Below are positions 2,672 through 19,316 of a stretch of DNA of 64,000 bases, piece after piece (the first letter of the stretch is position 1; the number at the start of each line of letters is the position of its first letter). Source of the stretch: Planctomycetota bacterium (GTDB taxonomy: Bacteria; Planctomycetota; UBA1135; GCA-002748355). Location: contig JALSSW010000028.1 in NCBI GenBank assembly GCA_026984035.1, positions 5,745-69,744 on the forward strand, read 5' to 3'. Position numbers and translations under genes: made by a program. The notes beneath the pieces are model-generated. The model was not told the DNA's origin and did not search any database. It worked only from the letters and a program-made list of their open reading frames with translations.

Positions 2672-3490
2672 ATGCCTTCGGGAACCTCTCCAGCCAAGTT
2701 GGACTCGGAGCTTTCTACAAAGCCCTCCCGAGTTCTCATTCTCATTCCAGCGATGAATGAAGAACAAAGCTTACCCGAAGTTTTTGAGGCCTTGGTGAAA
2801 CAGTTCCCTCCAAAAGACATCCTTTTGGTCGACGATGGTTCCTCGGATCGGACACCTGAAATCGCTGCCTCTTATGGGTGTAAGGTTGTCAGCCATATTC
2901 ATAATCTGGGCTATGGGTCTACCTTGTTGACGGGTTATCACTACGCGCTGCTTCACGACTATGATTATGTTGTGCAGGTGGATGGAGATGGCCAGCATCC
3001 TCCTGCTCTCATTCCCAGGCTGCTGCAACCCGTGATTCAAGGTGATTGTGATGTGGCCATTGGATCCCGCTACTTGGAGGGAAAGTCTCCTACTGGATGG
3101 TTACGCCGTTTGGGTGCACTTCCTCTTTCTCTTGTTGCGAGTCTTTGGATTGGATCCAAAATAACGGACCCTACCTCCGGATTTCAGGCCCTTTCCAAAA
3201 AGGCTATCCTGGAGTTGTGTACGGATGGTTTCCCTGATGATTATCCAGACATTGATGTCCTTATTCATCTTCACCGCAAGGACATTCGAATTCGAGAGAT
3301 TCCTGTGGTAATGAAACCGAGGGTGCATGGTCAGACGATGCACGGAGGCTGGAAAGCACTTTATTATTATTACCGAATGGCTGTCTGCTTGCTTTTGATG
3401 CCCATCCGCCGGAACTCTCCTTACCGAAGGCAGCGTCCCATGGATGATCATCCCTTGGATAAGGGATCTTTGCGGGGACTCTATTCGTGA
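2672..3490 (+). CDS. Family 2 glycosyltransferase (polyprenyl-phosphate sugar transferase-like)
   Basis: VLILIPAMNEE...LLVDDGSSDRT and VVQVDGDGQHPP motifs typical of GT2. The ATG lies 5 nt after the upstream stop. Confidence 0.85.
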   Translation: MPSGTSPAKLDSELSTKPSRVLILIPAMNEEQSLPEVFEALVKQFPPKDILLVDDGSSDRTPEIAASYGCKVVSHIHNLGYGSTLLTGYHYALLHDYDYVVQVDGDGQHPPALIPRLLQPVIQGDCDVAIGSRYLEGKSPTGWLRRLGALPLSLVASLWIGSKITDPTSGFQALSKKAILELCTDGFPDDYPDIDVLIHLHRKDIRIREIPVVMKPRVHGQTMHGGWKALYYYYRMAVCLLLMPIRRNSPYRRQRPMDDHPLDKGSLRGLYS

Positions 3491-11016: not shown

Positions 11017-12417
11017 GTGTCGCTAAAGAACCATTTGAAACCTCCTTCCGTTTCCATCCGAAGGAAACGGGAAGGACGCAAAAAGAAAGGAGCCCGGGGA
11101 GCATCTATCCGCATAGGGGTATTGATCGTTGCCGTAGTCTTGCTCGGGTCCATTATTTTTGGAGGTTTGGGGAATCTGCTGAATCCTCGGGAAGATACTA
11201 CCCTTATCACTCCACCCCGGAACCAGATCCCCCTTGATGCGGGTTATACGGTTCCCGTTCCCGAAATTGACCCTTCTTTGTTTAAGGATGTAAGAGAAGA
11301 GACTTCTGCACAAAGATATATCAACGAACCTAAGCCTTATTTGCAACTTCTGCGGGCAGCCATCAAATTGGTTCCAGGCTCCCTGCGAGAGATGGGCCTT
11401 CCGGATCGGCCAGTCCCTATCTCCCTCCTCCAGGGAAACCCGGATAAATACCGAGGCGCCCCCCTCTTCTATGAAGGTGAACTTCTTAGTTTGAGGCCTC
11501 CGGAAAAGGTTCCAGGTTTAGAAAGTTTTGAGGTCACGGAAGGTCTGCTCCAGACTGATTCCAAGGAGAATGTCCTTTTTGCGATTATTGAACCTGCTCC
11601 CAAGGACATTCACCCAGGGAGTCGAGTGCGCATAGAGGGTTTTTTCTTCAAGCTTCGTGATGAGAACTTCCCATTCAAGGTAAAAAAAGCTCCGTTCTTG
11701 GTAGGGGCCAATTTGAAGCATGCCTTCAAGGAATTCCCTCCGGTAAAAACCCTCGATAAAAAGATCCTCGGGCAAATCCGGGATAAGAGCCTCCGAGAAG
11801 CAAAAACCATTGAAGACCTCCCTTTCTTTCATCTTGCTTCCTGGATTATGAACCAGAAAGATCGAAAGAATTGGCCCAAGGAAACCCCGGAACTTACTCG
11901 GAAGATTGCTGTCCATATGGCGCAGGCTGATGGGACGATTCCCCGGGGCAAAATGTTCAAGATCATTGCAAACCTCCTTTGGGTGCAGGTAATTAAGGCT
12001 GAGCCGAATCCCCTTAAGGTTTCTTTCTGGTCCCGGGTTTGGCTCTACCACCCCACGATTGGCACCATTGCTTTAAAAATCCCCGGGAAGCTTCCTCACA
12101 ATTGGAAAACCGGTGACGAGGTCGTTGCTTATGGGGTTTTTATGAAGAGGATCTACTACGAGACGGGAGCCTCCCGAAAGGAGTGGAAATATCGGTTTCG
12201 GATCATCCCCTTCTTCGTTGCCGATCAGCTCTATTATTTGAAAGTGATCGATAACCCCCTCAACCAAATCTTGCGAATCTTTTTCGTGGCCCTTACGGCT
12301 TTTTTGGTCTTGGCTTTGATGATTTTAGCAGTTCGGGATTCCAAGGCGGATAAAGAAATTCGAAACCGCCTTCGCGCAAAGAAACTCAAGCGGATGCGAA
12401 ACCGGATGGGAGAGTAG
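11017..12417 (+). CDS. Hypothetical membrane-anchored protein (N- and C-terminal TM helices)
   Basis: 466-aa ORF with a GTG start. Basic N-terminus, then TM helix IGVLIVAVVLLGSIIFGG. C-terminal TM helix FFVALTAFLVLALMILAV followed by a basic tail. No known motif recognised. Confidence 0.55.
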   Translation: MSLKNHLKPPSVSIRRKREGRKKKGARGASIRIGVLIVAVVLLGSIIFGGLGNLLNPREDTTLITPPRNQIPLDAGYTVPVPEIDPSLFKDVREETSAQRYINEPKPYLQLLRAAIKLVPGSLREMGLPDRPVPISLLQGNPDKYRGAPLFYEGELLSLRPPEKVPGLESFEVTEGLLQTDSKENVLFAIIEPAPKDIHPGSRVRIEGFFFKLRDENFPFKVKKAPFLVGANLKHAFKEFPPVKTLDKKILGQIRDKSLREAKTIEDLPFFHLASWIMNQKDRKNWPKETPELTRKIAVHMAQADGTIPRGKMFKIIANLLWVQVIKAEPNPLKVSFWSRVWLYHPTIGTIALKIPGKLPHNWKTGDEVVAYGVFMKRIYYETGASRKEWKYRFRIIPFFVADQLYYLKVIDNPLNQILRIFFVALTAFLVLALMILAVRDSKADKEIRNRLRAKKLKRMRNRMGE

Positions 12418-12422
12418 GAAGG

Positions 12423-13499
12423 ATGAGTTGGGAACTCTCCTTTCCGAGTCGGAGGGAAGCGCAAACTCAAGTTGAACTTGGTTGCGATAGGTTTGGGGAA
12501 CTCATCCACTGGCTCCGGCAACGGGAAGGACGTTTCTACCTGGTTGTAGATGAAAGTGTTCTCCTTTTTCATCCCCATCGCTTGGCCCCCCTTAAGGAAG
12601 AGGCCTTGGGAGTTTCGATTGTTCCAGGAGGGGATCGCTCAAAAAAACCTTCCAAATTGGCGGAACTCTGTTCTGAGATGGCGGAGGTTGGGCTTGGGCG
12701 GAGGGATGCAGTTGTTGTGGTGGGGGGAGGGAGCATCCTCGATTTAGGTGGGTTGGCTGCAGCTTTGTACCTCAGAGGGGTGTCCCTCATTCAGGTTCCA
12801 ACGACCTTCCTCTCCGCTGTGGATGCTTGTCTTGGAGGGAAATGTGCCGTAGATCTCCCGGAAGGGCGAAACCTGATGGGGGTTTTTCATTTTGCAGAGA
12901 AGCTTTTGGTGGACCCCCTTTTCTTAGGAACGCTCCCCCCTTCCGAATTCTCCAACGGCCTCGGCGAAGTGGCAAAGTATGGACTCGGTTTTTCCGAAGG
13001 GCTGATGGATTGGCTTCTTGCTCTTCCACCTCTTGGTCCTTCATCGGATCCGGTTTTACTGGAAGACCTCGTGGGGAAGTGTCTTCGAATTAAGTCCGAA
13101 GTGGTGATGCGGGATCCTTGGGAGAGGGATGGAGTTCGTCGTACCCTTAATCTAGGGCACAGTCTTGCGCATGCCCTTGAGGCTTTTTCTGGACCGGGAA
13201 GGATTGGTCATGGAAGGGCTGTCGGCTTGGGTCTTCGGGCAGAGTTGCGTATGGGGGGGCTTCCTGCAAGGGAGCGGAGGAAAGCAGAGGTTTTCTTGGA
13301 TCATTTAGGCCAGGCATCTTCCCTTGTAGAGGTTTTCTCTCGTCCTCCTGGAGTCAAGGAACTCGAACCTTTCTTTTTGCGAGACAAGAAAACTGAGGGG
13401 GCATTCTTGTTCGAACCAAGAATTGAAACTCTAGGTTCATGTTCCATGAAGCGAGTAGATCCTGTCTTGCATTTGAAAGATCTTCTCAAAAGTCTTTAA
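12423..13499 (+). CDS. aroB: 3-dehydroquinate synthase
   Basis: VVVVGGGSILDLGGLAAALYLRGVSLIQVPTTFLSAVDACLGGKCAVD and LNLGHSLAHALE are typical of AroB. Confidence 0.9.
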   Translation: MSWELSFPSRREAQTQVELGCDRFGELIHWLRQREGRFYLVVDESVLLFHPHRLAPLKEEALGVSIVPGGDRSKKPSKLAELCSEMAEVGLGRRDAVVVVGGGSILDLGGLAAALYLRGVSLIQVPTTFLSAVDACLGGKCAVDLPEGRNLMGVFHFAEKLLVDPLFLGTLPPSEFSNGLGEVAKYGLGFSEGLMDWLLALPPLGPSSDPVLLEDLVGKCLRIKSEVVMRDPWERDGVRRTLNLGHSLAHALEAFSGPGRIGHGRAVGLGLRAELRMGGLPARERRKAEVFLDHLGQASSLVEVFSRPPGVKELEPFFLRDKKTEGAFLFEPRIETLGSCSMKRVDPVLHLKDLLKSL

Positions 13500-13630: not shown

Positions 13631-14947
13631 CTAAACCGAGATTTCTTTTTTTCGAGAGCTGTCTTTTGTGGGCCTCGTCGAGTTTCGGCCCTTTTTCTCC
13701 AAATCCGGAATGAGGCGGCATTCACAGAGTGACTCAAGGGCTTCTCGATAATTGTTGAACTCTTGATCCCAGGAGTGTTCGTTCAGGAATCTTTTTGCCC
13801 TCCTCGCCATGGCTTGAGCTTCGGCAGGATGTTCGTAAAGGAATACAAGGTGGTTGGCAAAAGTCTCGATGTCGCCGTCTTCAAAATAGAGAACTTCTCC
13901 CTCCTGAAAGAGGGTTCGCATGATCTTGGTGTTTACCGTCACGATGGGCAGGCTCATTGCCACATATTCCGGGACTTTGAGGGATAATGCTATGTCGATG
14001 TGGACATCCATATGAGGTGTGAAGGTCCCAACCGAAGAATGACTCATGACTTCGGGAACTTGTCGGAGATCAATGGAGGGCCGAATATCCAATCGATGGG
14101 AAACTCCTAATTCCCCTGCCAATCGTTCGAGTGCAGCAAGGGGTTCTCCTTCTCCATCGGCAAGTTTGGGGTGAAGCACCAGGCGAATCCCCGGTATTCG
14201 GTCTTGGGCCATGGCCAAAACTTTGACTAGCTGATCCGGGCCGTGTCGGTCGGAAACCGTTCCCAGGTAAAGGAGTCTGAATTCTTCAGGATCTTCTGGT
14301 CCTTTCCAGGGATGCGCCCCCTCATTGAAAAGCTCTGTGTCGGGAGCGTTAAGGACAACTAGCGAATCTTTCTTTTGGCAGGTTCCGCGACCAATGGCGA
14401 TGTTTTGAAAAATGGAGGTCGCAAAGATCACTTTATCAGCAAAAAGATGTGAGGCTATCTCTTGGACACGAAGGGGAAAAATCATGGGGTGGTTCAAGTT
14501 GCAGTGGAATTTACTGGCATACACCTCTGGCATCAGGTCGTGAACGTCCAGAACTATTTTGGTTCCGAACACCTTTGGGATCAGGGCGCTGAATACTAAA
14601 AAGTCGGGCATGTTGTGGACATGAACGACATCGAAACGCTTGTGAAAGGTTTTTTTTGTCAGGTGCCAGAAGGCGAGGAAGAGAAAGACAAAGTACTCGA
14701 ATAGATAGCGAAACGTTCCGCCTCGTTTGCGATCCAGGGGGGCTCGAACCAGGTGTACACCTTCAAGGATTTCCTTCTTGGGGAGGCCCTTTCCCCTAAG
14801 AGCAATGATCTCGACATAGTGTCCTAATTTGGCCAGTGATTCGGCATATCTCCGAACCCGAGCGTCCTTTTCGTAGTACGCATGGACCACCATTCCGACC
14901 CGGATCTTCCTATGGGGCTTCCCTTGCTTTGTTTCTTCAGTTTTCAT
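13631..14947 (-). CDS. Glycosyltransferase family 4 (GT-B fold)
   Basis: KIRVGMVVHAYYEKDARVRRYAESLAKLGHYVEII is a typical GT4 N-terminus. I use the internal ATG at 14947 (MKTEETKQ...), because the track ORF start (15091) would overlap the upstream gene by 155 nt. Confidence 0.8.
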   Translation of the reverse strand: MKTEETKQGKPHRKIRVGMVVHAYYEKDARVRRYAESLAKLGHYVEIIALRGKGLPKKEILEGVHLVRAPLDRKRGGTFRYLFEYFVFLFLAFWHLTKKTFHKRFDVVHVHNMPDFLVFSALIPKVFGTKIVLDVHDLMPEVYASKFHCNLNHPMIFPLRVQEIASHLFADKVIFATSIFQNIAIGRGTCQKKDSLVVLNAPDTELFNEGAHPWKGPEDPEEFRLLYLGTVSDRHGPDQLVKVLAMAQDRIPGIRLVLHPKLADGEGEPLAALERLAGELGVSHRLDIRPSIDLRQVPEVMSHSSVGTFTPHMDVHIDIALSLKVPEYVAMSLPIVTVNTKIMRTLFQEGEVLYFEDGDIETFANHLVFLYEHPAEAQAMARRAKRFLNEHSWDQEFNNYREALESLCECRLIPDLEKKGRNSTRPTKDSSRKKEISV

Positions 14948-16181
14948 CAATCTTTTGTTCGAGGATTGTTCCACAGAGATTGAGCAGGTCCAGGACTCTT
15001 TGATCCCAGGAGTCATTGTGGACAGCCGCTTTACGCAGCTTGGCTTTTTCCTCGTTGCGATCCTTGTCCAGAGCGATTTGGATGGCTTCAAGGAACTCCT
15101 CTGGGTTCTGAGCGATTCTCACAATGTTTTCGTAGCGATGGATTTCTGGGAAATCCATCGTCACCACGGGTAAGCCGAGCGCAAGATATTCCTTAAGTTT
15201 GATCGGGTTGCAGTTTTTGATCCAGTCGTTTTTCTTCCATGGCATGATGGCAACGTCGAAGGCTGATCCAAGTTTGGGGATTTCCTCAAAGCTTCTGGGG
15301 CCTAACCACCTCACATTTGGAAGCTCTGTAATGCTCTCCAATGAGCTTGTTGCATCTCCAATCAGCAGGAGTGTGCCCTGGGAAAATCGTTGAGCGATTT
15401 TTTTTAGAAGGGAGAAGTCAACCAGATGTTCTCGCAGCCCTCCAAACCATCCAATGATAGGCCTTGGCAAGTCCTTTAATTCCTTTGGCAGTTCAGATGA
15501 GGGGACCTGTTTGAAATGATTTGTATCAACCCCATGATCGAAAAGGATTGCTTTGTCGCCGCATAGGTAGCTCTCTTCTTCCATGAGAGCTTTGCTGACA
15601 TAAAGGACGATGTCAGCTTTTTCCATTAATTCTTTTTCCAGCCTTTCGATGTATCCCCCATCGGCTTCTCCAAAGGCGGAGTGTTTGTCCGAGCGGTTAT
15701 AGATCAAGCAGTCCATCGGTTCATCGCGAAGAACCTCCATGGCGGTTGGTACCGTGACAAAATAAATGGGGTTTTGAATCCTATTCTTTTTCTTTGCCAG
15801 GTTGACTTGAGCCCTGATCATCCGGGCATTGAGAGCCCGCATTTTTGGCGAGCCATAGAGAGGGAGAAGGATAGGGCTGAGTACATGATATTTGGGAAGG
15901 TGGGGTAGCGGCGTCTTTAGAAACTTGGCCATACTTTTGGCCTTACGAAGAATCCGCTTGAGAAAGCCGCTACTCTTTCCCGGAGTTGGCATGCGCATAC
16001 CAATACTATTGATTAGTAAAACTTCCCTCGTTTCAGCAAGGCGCGTCATAAGCTGAAAATCGGAATGAGCCCGGTTGTGATACCACCAATCCAGCCCGCA
16101 AAAACAGACAAAGGGTCGGTTGGCACAAGAATCCATCCGCGTGCTTAAGATCGCCTCTCCCATCTTCGGCTTTTCACTCAT
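14937..16181 (-). CDS. Glycosyltransferase (GT1-like, TuaH-type)
   Basis: C-terminal block FDVAIMPWKKNDWIKNCNPIKLKEYLALGLPVVTMDFPE is typical of GT-B sugar transferases. It overlaps the downstream GT4 start by 11 nt. Confidence 0.7.
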   Translation of the reverse strand: MSEKPKMGEAILSTRMDSCANRPFVCFCGLDWWYHNRAHSDFQLMTRLAETREVLLINSIGMRMPTPGKSSGFLKRILRKAKSMAKFLKTPLPHLPKYHVLSPILLPLYGSPKMRALNARMIRAQVNLAKKKNRIQNPIYFVTVPTAMEVLRDEPMDCLIYNRSDKHSAFGEADGGYIERLEKELMEKADIVLYVSKALMEEESYLCGDKAILFDHGVDTNHFKQVPSSELPKELKDLPRPIIGWFGGLREHLVDFSLLKKIAQRFSQGTLLLIGDATSSLESITELPNVRWLGPRSFEEIPKLGSAFDVAIMPWKKNDWIKNCNPIKLKEYLALGLPVVTMDFPEIHRYENIVRIAQNPEEFLEAIQIALDKDRNEEKAKLRKAAVHNDSWDQRVLDLLNLCGTILEQKIDEN

Positions 16182-16491
16182 TCTGTGAGTTGTGCTTTCC
16201 AGAATTCCCCCATGCTTCTTGGAAGAGGTTTCTTGGTAGAAAATCCCCCATATCCTACCCTTGGCTTCTCGACTTCCTAATAGGATCCACTTAACCCGAT
16301 CTCACGAATAAACCGGATAAGGGAGATCCTGTTCTCAGTGAAAAACGCCTGGTAGATCGGGGGAGGGTCTGAATAATGCGGGATGGGTCATGCAAAAGCC
16401 CGAGAAGAACATGGTCGCTTATCCTCTTTGGGGAGAAAAGCGGAAAAAGAGGCTTCGATGGAGGCCTTCCAAGTGCCGAAACACTATAGAT

Positions 16492-17379
16492 ATGGAAGAA
16501 CAACTAAAGCATCTTGACGGGGATTTGGAGACTTCCTCTTCTGCGGGGAGGACTTTCACTTGGGCTTCCTTCTTCCTGCTGTTTTTTGTTTTGGAGCCGT
16601 TTTTGGAACTAGAGGTCCGCCTTTGGTTTTCTTCCTCTAAGCAAAACTCTGCGGCACTGATCGGTTTTGTTGGAGCCCTTTGGATGTTGCTTGGCAGGCG
16701 CAAGGAAGTGTTCGGGAAACCGGGTCGGTCTCGGAACTGGTCGGTGTTCTTCTCTGCGCTGTTCATCGGATGTCTCTGGTTTTCGCTTCTAATGGATGTC
16801 CGCTCTGGTGTTGCTTTTTTCTCCATTTTGCTCCTTTTTTCTTCCCTCCACTATCTATTTGGGTTCCGCTTTGCCCCTTCGACCCTTTTTGCGGGACTCT
16901 TTCTCCTTGCCACAGTTCCGATCCCAGGTGGGTTCATGGCAAAAATGGGACAGGTTTTAGTGGAAGCTGCGGCCGCCTTGGCTTTCGGGATCCTTAGGCC
17001 CTTCTATTCGGGTCTCGACCTTTTGGGTTATAGCTTGGTTCTCCCCTCTGGGGCGGCCGTGGAAATCGTAGATGATTGCAATGGTTTGGCCGGGATTCTC
17101 CTCTTTCCCATTTTAATCTTGACCCTCCTTGCCTTTTGGAGAGTGAGAAGTTGGAAGGTCGGGGGGCTATTCCTTGGACTTTCTTTTTTGGCCGCGTTTG
17201 GAGGGAACCTCCTCAGGATCTTGCTCACAGCATTCTTCGAGTTCCAGGGTTTATCTTGGAATCATTCTCCCGTTTTTCATGAGGTGCTGGGATTGGTCAG
17301 CTTGGCGCTCTTTTTTATTCCTTTGGCTTGGCTTCTTTACAGGTTCAAAGGTCCAGGATGCGAGGGGGAGAAGCCATGA
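16492..17379 (+). CDS. Exosortase family protein (EpsH/Xrt-type transpeptidase)
   Basis: Polytopic membrane protein with Cys motif EIVDDCNGLAGILLF, Arg motif GGNLLRILLTAFF and a downstream His (FHEVLGL). The start is taken at ATG 16492 (MEEQLKH); the track ORF begins at 16390. Confidence 0.75.
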   Translation: MEEQLKHLDGDLETSSSAGRTFTWASFFLLFFVLEPFLELEVRLWFSSSKQNSAALIGFVGALWMLLGRRKEVFGKPGRSRNWSVFFSALFIGCLWFSLLMDVRSGVAFFSILLLFSSLHYLFGFRFAPSTLFAGLFLLATVPIPGGFMAKMGQVLVEAAAALAFGILRPFYSGLDLLGYSLVLPSGAAVEIVDDCNGLAGILLFPILILTLLAFWRVRSWKVGGLFLGLSFLAAFGGNLLRILLTAFFEFQGLSWNHSPVFHEVLGLVSLALFFIPLAWLLYRFKGPGCEGEKP

Positions 17380-18023
17380 GAACCCGAATCGTATTTTTCC
17401 TAATTCTCCTTTGTGGGAGTGGCTTAGTTTTAGGGGAGCGTTTTTTTTCTTCTTCAGGTGATGCGCGTTTTGACTTTCCTGCCTTGGGGGAGTCCATCGC
17501 TGAGCTTTTTCCAGGCCCACAATGGGTTGAGGATCGTTTTCAGCCCAGCCCTCTGCTCCCCAAAGACTATATTCTTTTTGTCACTAAGGAAGGAGAGACC
17601 CCCAAACTCTCGATCTATCTAGGGTATTATCCAGGGATCATCTTTTTGGGGGAACAACCTCATGATCCTGAAGTTTGTTACCAGGCCCAGGGTTGGGATC
17701 TGGCAAAGCATCGAAGCGTTGAGGCCGTTCCCATGGGGGAAGGGAAGGTTGCCTATGTCCAGCGTTTGGAGGTTGCTTATGGGGAGGAGCAACGTGAAGT
17801 GGTGTTTTGGAGGCAAGAGCCTGGGCGCATCCCCGAAAAAGAGGAGAGCGGAATCGTAGCTCTTGGGAGAGATCTTGTTGGAAGGGTTGGGAGGGGAAGG
17901 CGGGACTACGCTTGGGTCAGGATCGAAAGCGATCCTGGCTTTCTACCAAGACCCCTAAATGATGTTTGGAAAGCCCAGATCAGAGCTCTGATCTTAAGAG
18001 TCTCCTCATGCTTTGGTGATTAA
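17376..18023 (+). CDS. EpsI-family exosortase-associated protein
   Basis: ATGA overlap with the exosortase stop (17376-17379), preceded by GGGGGAG. N-terminal TM helix, then LSIYLGYYPG...HDPEVCYQAQGWDL, which matches the EpsI hallmark HxPxxCxxxxGW. Confidence 0.7.
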   Translation: MRTRIVFFLILLCGSGLVLGERFFSSSGDARFDFPALGESIAELFPGPQWVEDRFQPSPLLPKDYILFVTKEGETPKLSIYLGYYPGIIFLGEQPHDPEVCYQAQGWDLAKHRSVEAVPMGEGKVAYVQRLEVAYGEEQREVVFWRQEPGRIPEKEESGIVALGRDLVGRVGRGRRDYAWVRIESDPGFLPRPLNDVWKAQIRALILRVSSCFGD

Positions 18024-18416: not shown

Positions 18417-18635
18417 TCAGCGCCTTTTCTTTTTAAATGCCAAGAGACTCATTCCTGCCAAGGTTGCGCCGAGGATGGCGAGAACCAGGGTTGAACTTGG
18501 TTCGGGAGTAGGGCGGCCAGGATTGCTGTGGCCATAAAGGGTCGATGCTCGATTCATCCTGCTCGTCTTCATTTGGGACGGAAGGGCAGGAGTCAAGATA
18601 AAGAGCAGGAGGGTTACTGTGATGATTTTATTCAT
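18417..18635 (-). CDS. 72-aa PEP-CTERM sorting-signal miniprotein
   Basis: N-terminal signal peptide MNKIITVTLLLFILTPALPSQ. C-terminal TPEPSSTLVLAILGATLAGMSLLAFKKKRR gives a PEP motif, a TM helix and a basic cluster. Confidence 0.75.
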   Translation of the reverse strand: MNKIITVTLLLFILTPALPSQMKTSRMNRASTLYGHSNPGRPTPEPSSTLVLAILGATLAGMSLLAFKKKRR

Positions 18636-19316
18636 TTTGGGTGATGATACTTAGGTCGGACAATTACGGAACAAGAGGGCCTTTGCTCTAAGAGAAAGAA
18701 ATCTGCCAATTCTCTTCCCAAGCTGAAAGAACCCCCATTGGGGATCCCAAGCTCACAAAGAAAACCTGGAACAAAGCTCCATCTTAAGCTTGCTCATGCA
18801 AATTGCTTCGAAAACTTTGCATTCTCTTTGGCCGCTTTCATCAAGGAACCGGGAAGAGTGGAGCATCCACAAAAGGTGGGGAGCTAAGTTGGCTATGAAT
18901 AATTGCGTATTAAATATGGCGGGTAGCCATGAGAAAGCAAGGGAGAAGGGAGAAAAGAACTGGACTTTGTTTCTTCGTGGATTGGATAAAGGAAGGAATA
19001 GAATATTTTTAAAAAGCCGGAGAAAATTTGAAACTTTGGGAATTCGCCCTTCTATTTGTCTGTCCCAAGGGACGGGGATTCTATCCTTTGTCCTAAGTGG
19101 AGAGAGAGAATATACTCCGAATGGCGGGCTAACTGATCTTGGCCTTGCCAAAAAGGATTTAGAGAGAAAAGAACAGTACGCACGAGGGTTCACACCGAGA
19201 GATTCCGGGCACGGGGTTCGGGATCTCGGGGGCACGGGGTGGACCCTCGGCTTTTTTCTGTACGACCCGTCTGCTCGGCCCGGGGGAGTACCGGAGTAAA
19301 GCTCCTAGGGGAGCCT

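Follow-up and report, generated by a model that had tools for sequence, protein, structure and literature searches.

A protein that consists of little more than two sorting signals raises the question of what it is there to deliver, and to which enzyme. Such a protein is encoded by a 72-codon open reading frame (ORF) in a contig of a Planctomycetota bacterium, of which we analyzed a stretch of 64,000 nucleotides (the window). The initial annotation described it as a PEP-CTERM miniprotein with an N-terminal signal peptide, a PEP motif at residues 44 to 46, a transmembrane (TM) helix and a KKKRR tail, and put its mature part at about 22 residues. All three C-terminal elements are present in the sequence, the gene lies on the minus strand, and the ORF listing and the sequence together give a protein of 72 amino acids (aa), MNKIITVTLLLFILTPALPSQMKTSRMNRASTLYGHSNPGRPTPEPSSTLVLAILGATLAGMSLLAFKKKRR (Table 1). 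The stretch between the two signals is 23 residues long and is basic as described, with a net charge of +4 that is the same in every lineage we compared.

Table 1. Positions of the mini-protein gene, its parts and the associated features. Coordinates are those of the window unless a locus of a relative (L001 to L007, see text) is named.
Feature	Position	Strand	Description
Mini-protein gene	18417..18635	-	72 codons plus stop; ATG start; candidate dedicated exosortase target
Signal-peptide-like segment	18576..18635	-	Residues 1-20; from sequence and hydropathy
Putative mature part	18507..18575	-	Residues 21-43; from alignment, tblastn translations, charge and dN/dS
PEP motif	18498..18506	-	Residues 44-46; invariant across lineages
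TM helix and basic cluster KKKRR	18420..18497	-	Residues 47-72 (helix 47-67, KKKRR 68-72), then stop
Exosortase	16492..17379	+	295 aa from conserved ATG; ORF open from 16390; divergent unnamed subtype
EpsI-like partner	17376..18023	+	215 aa; PF11984/DUF3485 44.4 bits, TIGR02914 29.4 bits
Two GT4-type glycosyltransferase genes	13631-14947, 14937-16181	-	Pfam Glyco_transf_4, Glycos_transf_1, Glyco_trans_1_4
Candidate ncRNA	~19030-19258	+	~230 nt
Candidate ncRNA in relatives	L001 9445-9682 (-); L004 8248-8486 (+); L007 8188-8418 (+); L006 ~2960-3190 (+)		

Architecture of the mini-protein and scores of its tail

The N-terminal segment has an n-region with K3, a 12-residue hydrophobic core (Kyte-Doolittle 2.8) and a Pro-containing c-region, in which P16-x-L18-(P/A)-S20-Q21 is kept in the relatives. 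A hydrophobic region of about 12 residues is shorter than a stable TM helix needs. The segment is probably a Sec signal peptide, and its likely cleavage site is LPS-Q, after S20; the Pro at position -2 of this candidate site is not ideal. In the middle, a half that is basic and varies between lineages (Q-T/M-R/K...) is joined to an invariant block, (S/T)TLYGHxNPGRPT, which lies beside the PEP motif. Directly after PEP comes a hydrophobic stretch of 21 residues with a mean Kyte-Doolittle value of 1.85, which carries a conserved LGA(T/A)LAGMS. When the 64-kb window was screened for stop-to-stop ORFs of 35 codons or more, only the mini-protein had a PEP, TM and basic C terminus, and we found no further PEP-CTERM-like tails either in the window or in 11 fetched loci.

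PEP-CTERM proteins are defined by a PEP/TM/basic signal at the extreme C terminus together with an N-terminal signal (PMC1569441, PMC12188702), and the architecture of the mini-protein matches this definition. The profile scores were borderline or failing. TIGR02595, which had been suggested as a check of the PEP-CTERM reading, and PF07589 both left the full-length protein unreported at E<=1, and the only match reported was LPXTG_anchor at 17.1 bits. On isolated 33-residue tails, TIGR02595 gave 16.0 bits for the window, equal to its cut-off of 16, and 13.8 to 16.7 bits for the homologues, so that the check came out borderline at best. This alignment ran end to end (profile positions 1 to 24) from T43-PEP. 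The predicted mature forms scored 12.1 to 15.2 bits with the same model (window, 15.2), and PF07589 gave 12.4 to 16.5 bits across the family against a cut-off of 20.7 (window, 12.4). The hydrophobic part of the mini-protein is about 6 residues longer than that of the PEP-CTERM model.

Replacing PEP in silico with AAA or GSG abolished the TIGR02595 match, whereas LPXTG_anchor stayed at 20.7 to 23 bits after the replacement and was itself abolished when the basic tail was removed. The tail has the full architecture, and its PEP-CTERM profile match depends on PEP but is borderline or below threshold; we regard it as a divergent variant of the PEP-CTERM signal. An LPXTG anchor (TIGR01167/PF00746) was also considered and rejected: the matches of 17.1 to 20.1 bits covered only profile positions 8 to 33, which correspond to the TM and basic parts, the motif itself is absent, and the match persists or rises without PEP. 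Cross-matching of LPXTG models to a generic TM segment with a basic tail is a known artifact (PMC1569441).

Conservation and selection in five lineages

We compared the gene across five distinct lineages, namely the window, L001 (JGI 3300039274), L002/L003 (GCA_027024805.1), L004/L005 (GCA_054038375.1) and L006/L007, which is Planctomycetota bacterium HyVt-539 (DROQ01000231.1). The loci came from contigs of mini-protein homologues, contigs of exosortase homologues and one GTDB genome match. These lineages are rather close (EttA is 95% identical), and the synteny that they share is partly inherited rather than independently maintained. In each of the five, all of which have this exosortase, tblastn placed an intact ORF at the corresponding site, and its length is 72 codons throughout. 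The mini-protein is 60 to 67% identical across lineages, which is about the level of the exosortase (66 to 73%).

Nei-Gojobori estimates for the mini gene gave pS values of 0.53 to 0.75, near saturation, against pN values of 0.12 to 0.23, and dN/dS ratios of 0.06 to 0.25. The synonymous excess was significant in five pairs, comprising all four pairs with the window and L005-L002 (Fisher p of 3e-6 to 4e-12). Third codon positions varied most, with mean pairwise differences at positions 1, 2 and 3 of 0.22, 0.13 and 0.54. The annotated frame was the only one free of stops in all five lineages, and the other five frames carried stops in most of them. In the DNA alignment, the coding sequence stood out as an island of 77 to 88% column identity between flanks of 20 to 60%. 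The codon-periodic change, the dN/dS ratios well below 1 and the uniquely open frame indicate that the region is translated, and by these measures of selection the mini ORF is a genuine translated gene. The initial annotation had named conservation alongside the exosortase and codon-level selection as tests of its proposal, and both came out in its favor.

Constraint differed between the parts of the protein. It was strongest at residues 44 to 72 (dN/dS 0.04 to 0.13), followed by residues 22 to 43 in the middle (0.08 to 0.16), and the N-terminal segment was the least constrained (0.13 to 1.07), as is expected of a signal peptide. Invariant positions are P16, L18, S20, Q21, the run TLYGH-x-NPGRPTPEP and, in the helix, LGA-x-LAGMS..AFKK. 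We found no convincing Shine-Dalgarno sequence, sigma-54 or sigma-70 promoter or conserved upstream motif for the mini gene. It is intact and yet uncalled in the NCBI contig of one metagenome-assembled genome (MAG; L004 7757-7975, minus strand, GCA_054038375.1). At L002/L003, a called ORF of 134 to 138 aa (L002 3-419, plus strand) overlaps the start of the mini gene and runs antisense over an ncRNA-like region; this call is probably spurious.

The exosortase, its neighbors and their distribution

The exosortase gene next to the mini gene encodes a clear member of the family, with PF09721 at 72.4 bits (cut-off 25.7) and the TIGR04178 signature at 38.4 bits (cut-off 23). It fell below the NCBIfam cut-off of every named subtype (XrtA, D, H, N, T, U, V, W, X and F, and ArtE), the best subtype-level scores being 54.8 for 8TM_EpsH, against 105.6, and 47.6 for XrtA, against 208. 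Catalysis by exosortases has been proposed to depend on Cys, Arg and His (bioRxiv 10.1101/2023.06.07.544157). In this clade C230, R276, H292 and H297 (numbered on the 329-aa form) are invariant, and we regard the invariant Cys/Arg/His as candidate catalytic residues. The 34-codon upstream extension at window 16390-16491 (plus strand), which accounts for the difference between 329 and 295 aa, is basic and unconserved, and the true start is probably 16492, the ATG used by all homologues. No solved relative of the exosortase was found in the PDB by sequence, and an AlphaFold2 model built from a 4-sequence alignment was poor (pLDDT 47).

The ATG of the EpsI-like gene overlaps the exosortase stop codon (ATGA), and the EpsI protein is 80 to 83% identical across lineages. 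The mini gene is convergent to this exosortase-EpsI operon and is separated from the exosortase by one gene, EpsI, in 5 of 5 lineages. It had been annotated as adjacent to glycosyltransferases (GTs); its immediate neighbors are in fact EpsI and the exosortase, and the two GT genes lie beyond them, divergent from the operon. On the other side of the mini gene, a gap of about 900 nt is followed by EttA and PNPase. The gene order of the locus is identical in all lineages. The co-occurrence of exosortase, EpsI and PEP-CTERM-like mini-protein in all five, together with the conservation and codon-level selection described above, supports the reading of a genuine PEP-CTERM-like miniprotein that is coupled to an exosortase.

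Both GT genes are weakly similar to the stp3 and stp1 GTs of PEP-CTERM/XrtA systems. The wider window contains scattered GT and TPR genes, and we found no canonical polysaccharide export locus in its 64 kb. Glycosylation of the peptide had been raised on the ground that PEP-CTERM proteins often carry sugars on Ser/Thr-rich regions, an idea that finds no support here beyond a few conserved Ser/Thr residues: the middle of the mini-protein is not a Ser/Thr-rich low-complexity region. GT4 enzymes use cytoplasmic nucleotide-sugar substrates, and an exported peptide would be out of direct reach of the neighboring GTs, which are of this cytoplasmic type.

The syntenic block includes two further genes of note. 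One (window 11017-12417, plus strand) encodes a 466-aa protein that is 79 to 87% identical between lineages and was matched by neither Pfam nor NCBIfam models at E<=1. A basic/TM segment lies at the N terminus of this protein, and its C terminus consists of a TM segment and a basic tail. The gene is flanked by a Peptidase_C26/GATase gene and by an AroB-like gene. The latter (window 12423-13499, plus strand) is a homologue of 3-dehydroquinate synthase that scores 236 bits against an aroB equivalog cut-off of 305; it is the least conserved gene of the block (57 to 66%) and its product might be a sugar-phosphate cyclase instead of a genuine AroB.

A block of about 230 nt in the intergenic region between the mini gene and EttA looks like an undescribed small RNA gene, divergent from the mini gene. 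The block is about 100% identical in four lineages whose coding sequences are saturated at synonymous sites, is single-copy in the window, and has a near-invariant 3' part of about 100 nt (GAGAGAGAAAAGAACAGTACGCACGAGGGTTCACACCGAGAGATTCCGGGCACGGGGTTCGGGATCTCGGGGGCACGGGGTGGAyCCTCGGCTTTTTT). Its plus strand forms three hairpins: one at the 5' end with some compensatory change, a variable one whose changes are compensatory as well, and an invariant one of 28 bp, after which comes a U-tract; the folding z-score was -3.15 on the plus strand versus -1.0 on the minus strand. No Rfam family, tRNA or tmRNA matched the intergenic region flanking the mini gene. Directly 5' of the block, at window 18985-19030 (plus strand) and at the equivalent positions of the other loci, is a conserved A/T-rich element, GAATATTTT(T/G)AAAAAG..G.A.AAA.TTTGAAACTTTGG, which may be the promoter region of the RNA. 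A sigma-70-like site at 19088-19116 falls within the conserved RNA sequence and is possibly spurious. At the end of the HyVt-539 contig, the EttA-proximal part of the intergenic region is replaced by two head-to-tail tandem arrays that reach the contig end and are absent from the window (L007 8428-8504, 10 nt x 7.9 copies; L007 8602-8834, 38 nt x at least 6.1 copies, consensus CCCCTGGCCCTCCGGATCCCCAGCACAAAGCTGTTTCT). A CRISPR-like reading of these arrays was rejected since they have no spacers.

Outside these lineages, the system proved hard to find. Among 5.8 billion proteins, a word-indexed search found the mini-protein itself and two homologues, with only 4 candidates sharing words with it and no word-sharing paralogue. 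A profile of the exosortase clade found 4 members and one relative at 28 bits among the best 8000 word-sharing candidates from these 5.8 billion proteins. The locus of that 28-bit relative (L008) contains an exosortase, EpsI and a GT2, and we looked there for a mini PEP-CTERM ORF and found it absent; as a distant relative without the mini-ORF, this locus is silent on the wider distribution. A HMMER profile of the mini-protein family run exhaustively against 1.84 billion representatives found its own cluster only. Scans of metagenome contigs with the exosortase and mini-protein profiles gave no match, a scan of genome contigs gave one locus, and neither protein has a name in any of the sources we consulted. 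By sequence comparison, the mini-protein family is an orphan, and the exosortase-mini-protein pair belongs to a narrow clade of uncultured Planctomycetota.

Candidate roles of the mini-protein

We propose, with a probability of roughly 0.6, that the mini gene encodes the single dedicated substrate of the adjoining divergent exosortase/EpsI pair, where single refers to the 64-kb window and to the short loci, which are parts of genomes. This interpretation is supported by the architecture of the mini-protein, by the position of the mini gene within one gene of the exosortase and by the two being kept together in 5 of 5 lineages. In described one-to-one sorting systems, the enzyme adjoins its one target, typically within one gene (PMC3237569; bioRxiv 10.1101/2023.06.07.544157).

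In the mechanism that we envisage, Sec would export the precursor by way of the N-terminal signal peptide, probably cut after S20, and the C-terminal helix would keep the protein in the inner membrane with KKKRR on the cytoplasmic side. PEP, abutting the helix, would then be presented to the membrane-embedded Cys/Arg/His exosortase, which would cut at or near PEP. The cut peptide may be released or, more likely by analogy with sortase, archaeosortase A and rhombosortase, its new C terminus may be transferred to a lipid or glycan acceptor. The predicted product is a cationic peptide of about 23 to 26 residues that carries the invariant TLYGHxNPGRPT(PEP). The invariant block that precedes PEP may itself belong to the recognition signal and not to the cargo.

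Several known systems resemble this one in part. VPEID-CTERM/exosortase E (XrtE) is reportedly a dedicated single-target pair (Haft et al. in 2012), and a VPEID-CTERM model exists in NCBIfam (TIGR04161). Rhombosortase/GlyGly-CTERM (PMC3237569) and JDVT-CTERM/MrtJ (bioRxiv 10.1101/2023.06.07.544157) likewise consist of an enzyme and a sole target within one gene of it, the two being conserved as a pair. Compared with such dedicated pairs, the motif here is PEP with an invariant YGHxNPGRPT prefix, the cargo is extremely short, the exosortase belongs to a distinct lineage with no XrtE match, and the mini-protein has no sequence homology to the targets of the other pairs.

The PEP-CTERM/exosortase system (EpsH, XrtA) with EpsI (PMC1569441) shares with this locus the signal sequence, the PEP-TM-basic tail, the EpsI partner and the nearby GT genes. 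Classical PEP-CTERM systems, however, are one-to-many, with large and often Ser/Thr/Asn-rich cargo, whereas here there is one adjacent target with a cargo of about 23 residues; the exosortase is also far below the XrtA cut-off, and the tail is at or below those of the PEP-CTERM models. Archaeosortase A/PGF-CTERM and sortase A/LPXTG also combine a motif, TM segment and basic residues in the signal with a Cys/Arg/His enzyme, and in them cleavage is coupled to lipid or cell-wall attachment (bioRxiv 10.1101/2023.06.07.544157). Unlike in those systems, transfer by bacterial exosortases is unproven, and the mini-protein lacks an LPXTG motif. What distinguishes this locus is the isolated, unnamed exosortase lineage, the extended YGHxNPGRPT-PEP motif and the near absence of cargo; the single-target mode has already been described.

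A more specific version of the dedicated-substrate proposal takes the shortness of the peptide as its point. The mini-protein would be a minimal, cargo-less substrate, and the cationic peptide of about 23 residues would be transferred covalently by exosortase/EpsI onto a lipid or onto the polysaccharide that the adjacent GTs build, and a surface polymer would thereby gain a peptide that anchors, caps or primes it. An anchor, primer or signal had been suggested in the initial annotation, and such functions are speculative. We hold this version tentatively and think it unlikely.

The mini-protein may instead never be a substrate in the ordinary sense. As an all-signal pseudo-substrate or accessory subunit, it would dock in the exosortase/EpsI complex as a regulator, a plug, a primer of the acyl-enzyme or a small, stable subunit, perhaps in the form of a two-helix hairpin that stays uncleaved. 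The distribution of constraint would suit such a role, with the lowest dN/dS (0.04 to 0.16) over the PEP-proximal block and the TM helix and only about 10 variable residues left as possible cargo, and so would the specific small helix residues LGAxLAGMS, which are not conserved in ordinary PEP-CTERM helices. A hairpin would also obey the positive-inside rule, with K/R at the N terminus and KKKRR at the C terminus, and partners beside variant exosortases are known, such as the XrtF partner (PMC12188702). However, the short N-terminal core with a dN/dS of up to about 1 looks like a cleaved signal peptide and not like a packed TM helix, and the variable half keeps its +4 charge throughout, which suggests selection for this property in a peptide that is exposed. 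We consider a subunit role unlikely.

Release without attachment has less in its favor. The exosortase, or simple hydrolysis, would then free a small cationic peptide of about 23 to 26 residues as an extracellular signal, antimicrobial or adhesive, which accords with the short length, the net charge of +4 and the export signals at both ends, and the literature is undecided on whether exosortases transfer or only cleave (bioRxiv 10.1101/2023.06.07.544157). The conserved neighbors, however, are EpsI, the exosortase, the GTs, EttA and PNPase, with no immunity, transporter or sensor genes among them, and experiments on PEP-CTERM proteins indicate retention at the cell surface (bioRxiv 10.1101/2023.06.07.544157, PMC12188702). 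A freely released peptide is in our judgment quite unlikely.

We find it more doubtful still that the product is an unrelated small membrane protein in which the PEP tripeptide and the proximity of the exosortase are coincidental. The marginal TIGR02595 and PF07589 scores, and the 17 to 23 bits that a generic TM segment with a basic tail earns from LPXTG_anchor by itself, would be expected from such a protein; an invariant PEP that abuts the helix, an end-to-end and PEP-dependent TIGR02595 match, and the position beside exosortase/EpsI in 5 of 5 lineages of the sole such tail among the ORFs of the window and loci would not. Finally, the idea that there is no gene, and that a chance intergenic ORF or an overlapping RNA element accounts for the conservation, could appeal to the missing Shine-Dalgarno sequence and consensus promoter and to the uncalled copy in one NCBI MAG (L004), but we rejected it as extremely improbable given the codon periodicity, the low dN/dS, the identical length and the one frame open in all five lineages.

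The curated PEP-CTERM and Xrt models miss this divergent Planctomycetota system. If the locus is just another dedicated sortase-like pair, then its value lies mainly in annotation. If instead the peptide is transferred onto a lipid or polysaccharide, then the exosortase would be a peptide ligase, and the locus would be the simplest natural system in which to read the cleavage site and the acceptor of an exosortase by mass spectrometry. The chemistry of bacterial exosortases, including the cut site in PEP-CTERM, transfer and the acceptor, is still unsolved, and a one-to-one pair with a substrate of some 23 residues plus the sorting signal would serve ideally as a minimal model for it. One MS/MS peptide would cover the entire product together with any adduct at its C terminus, and a heterologous host could receive the genes for exosortase, EpsI and mini-protein as a set of three.
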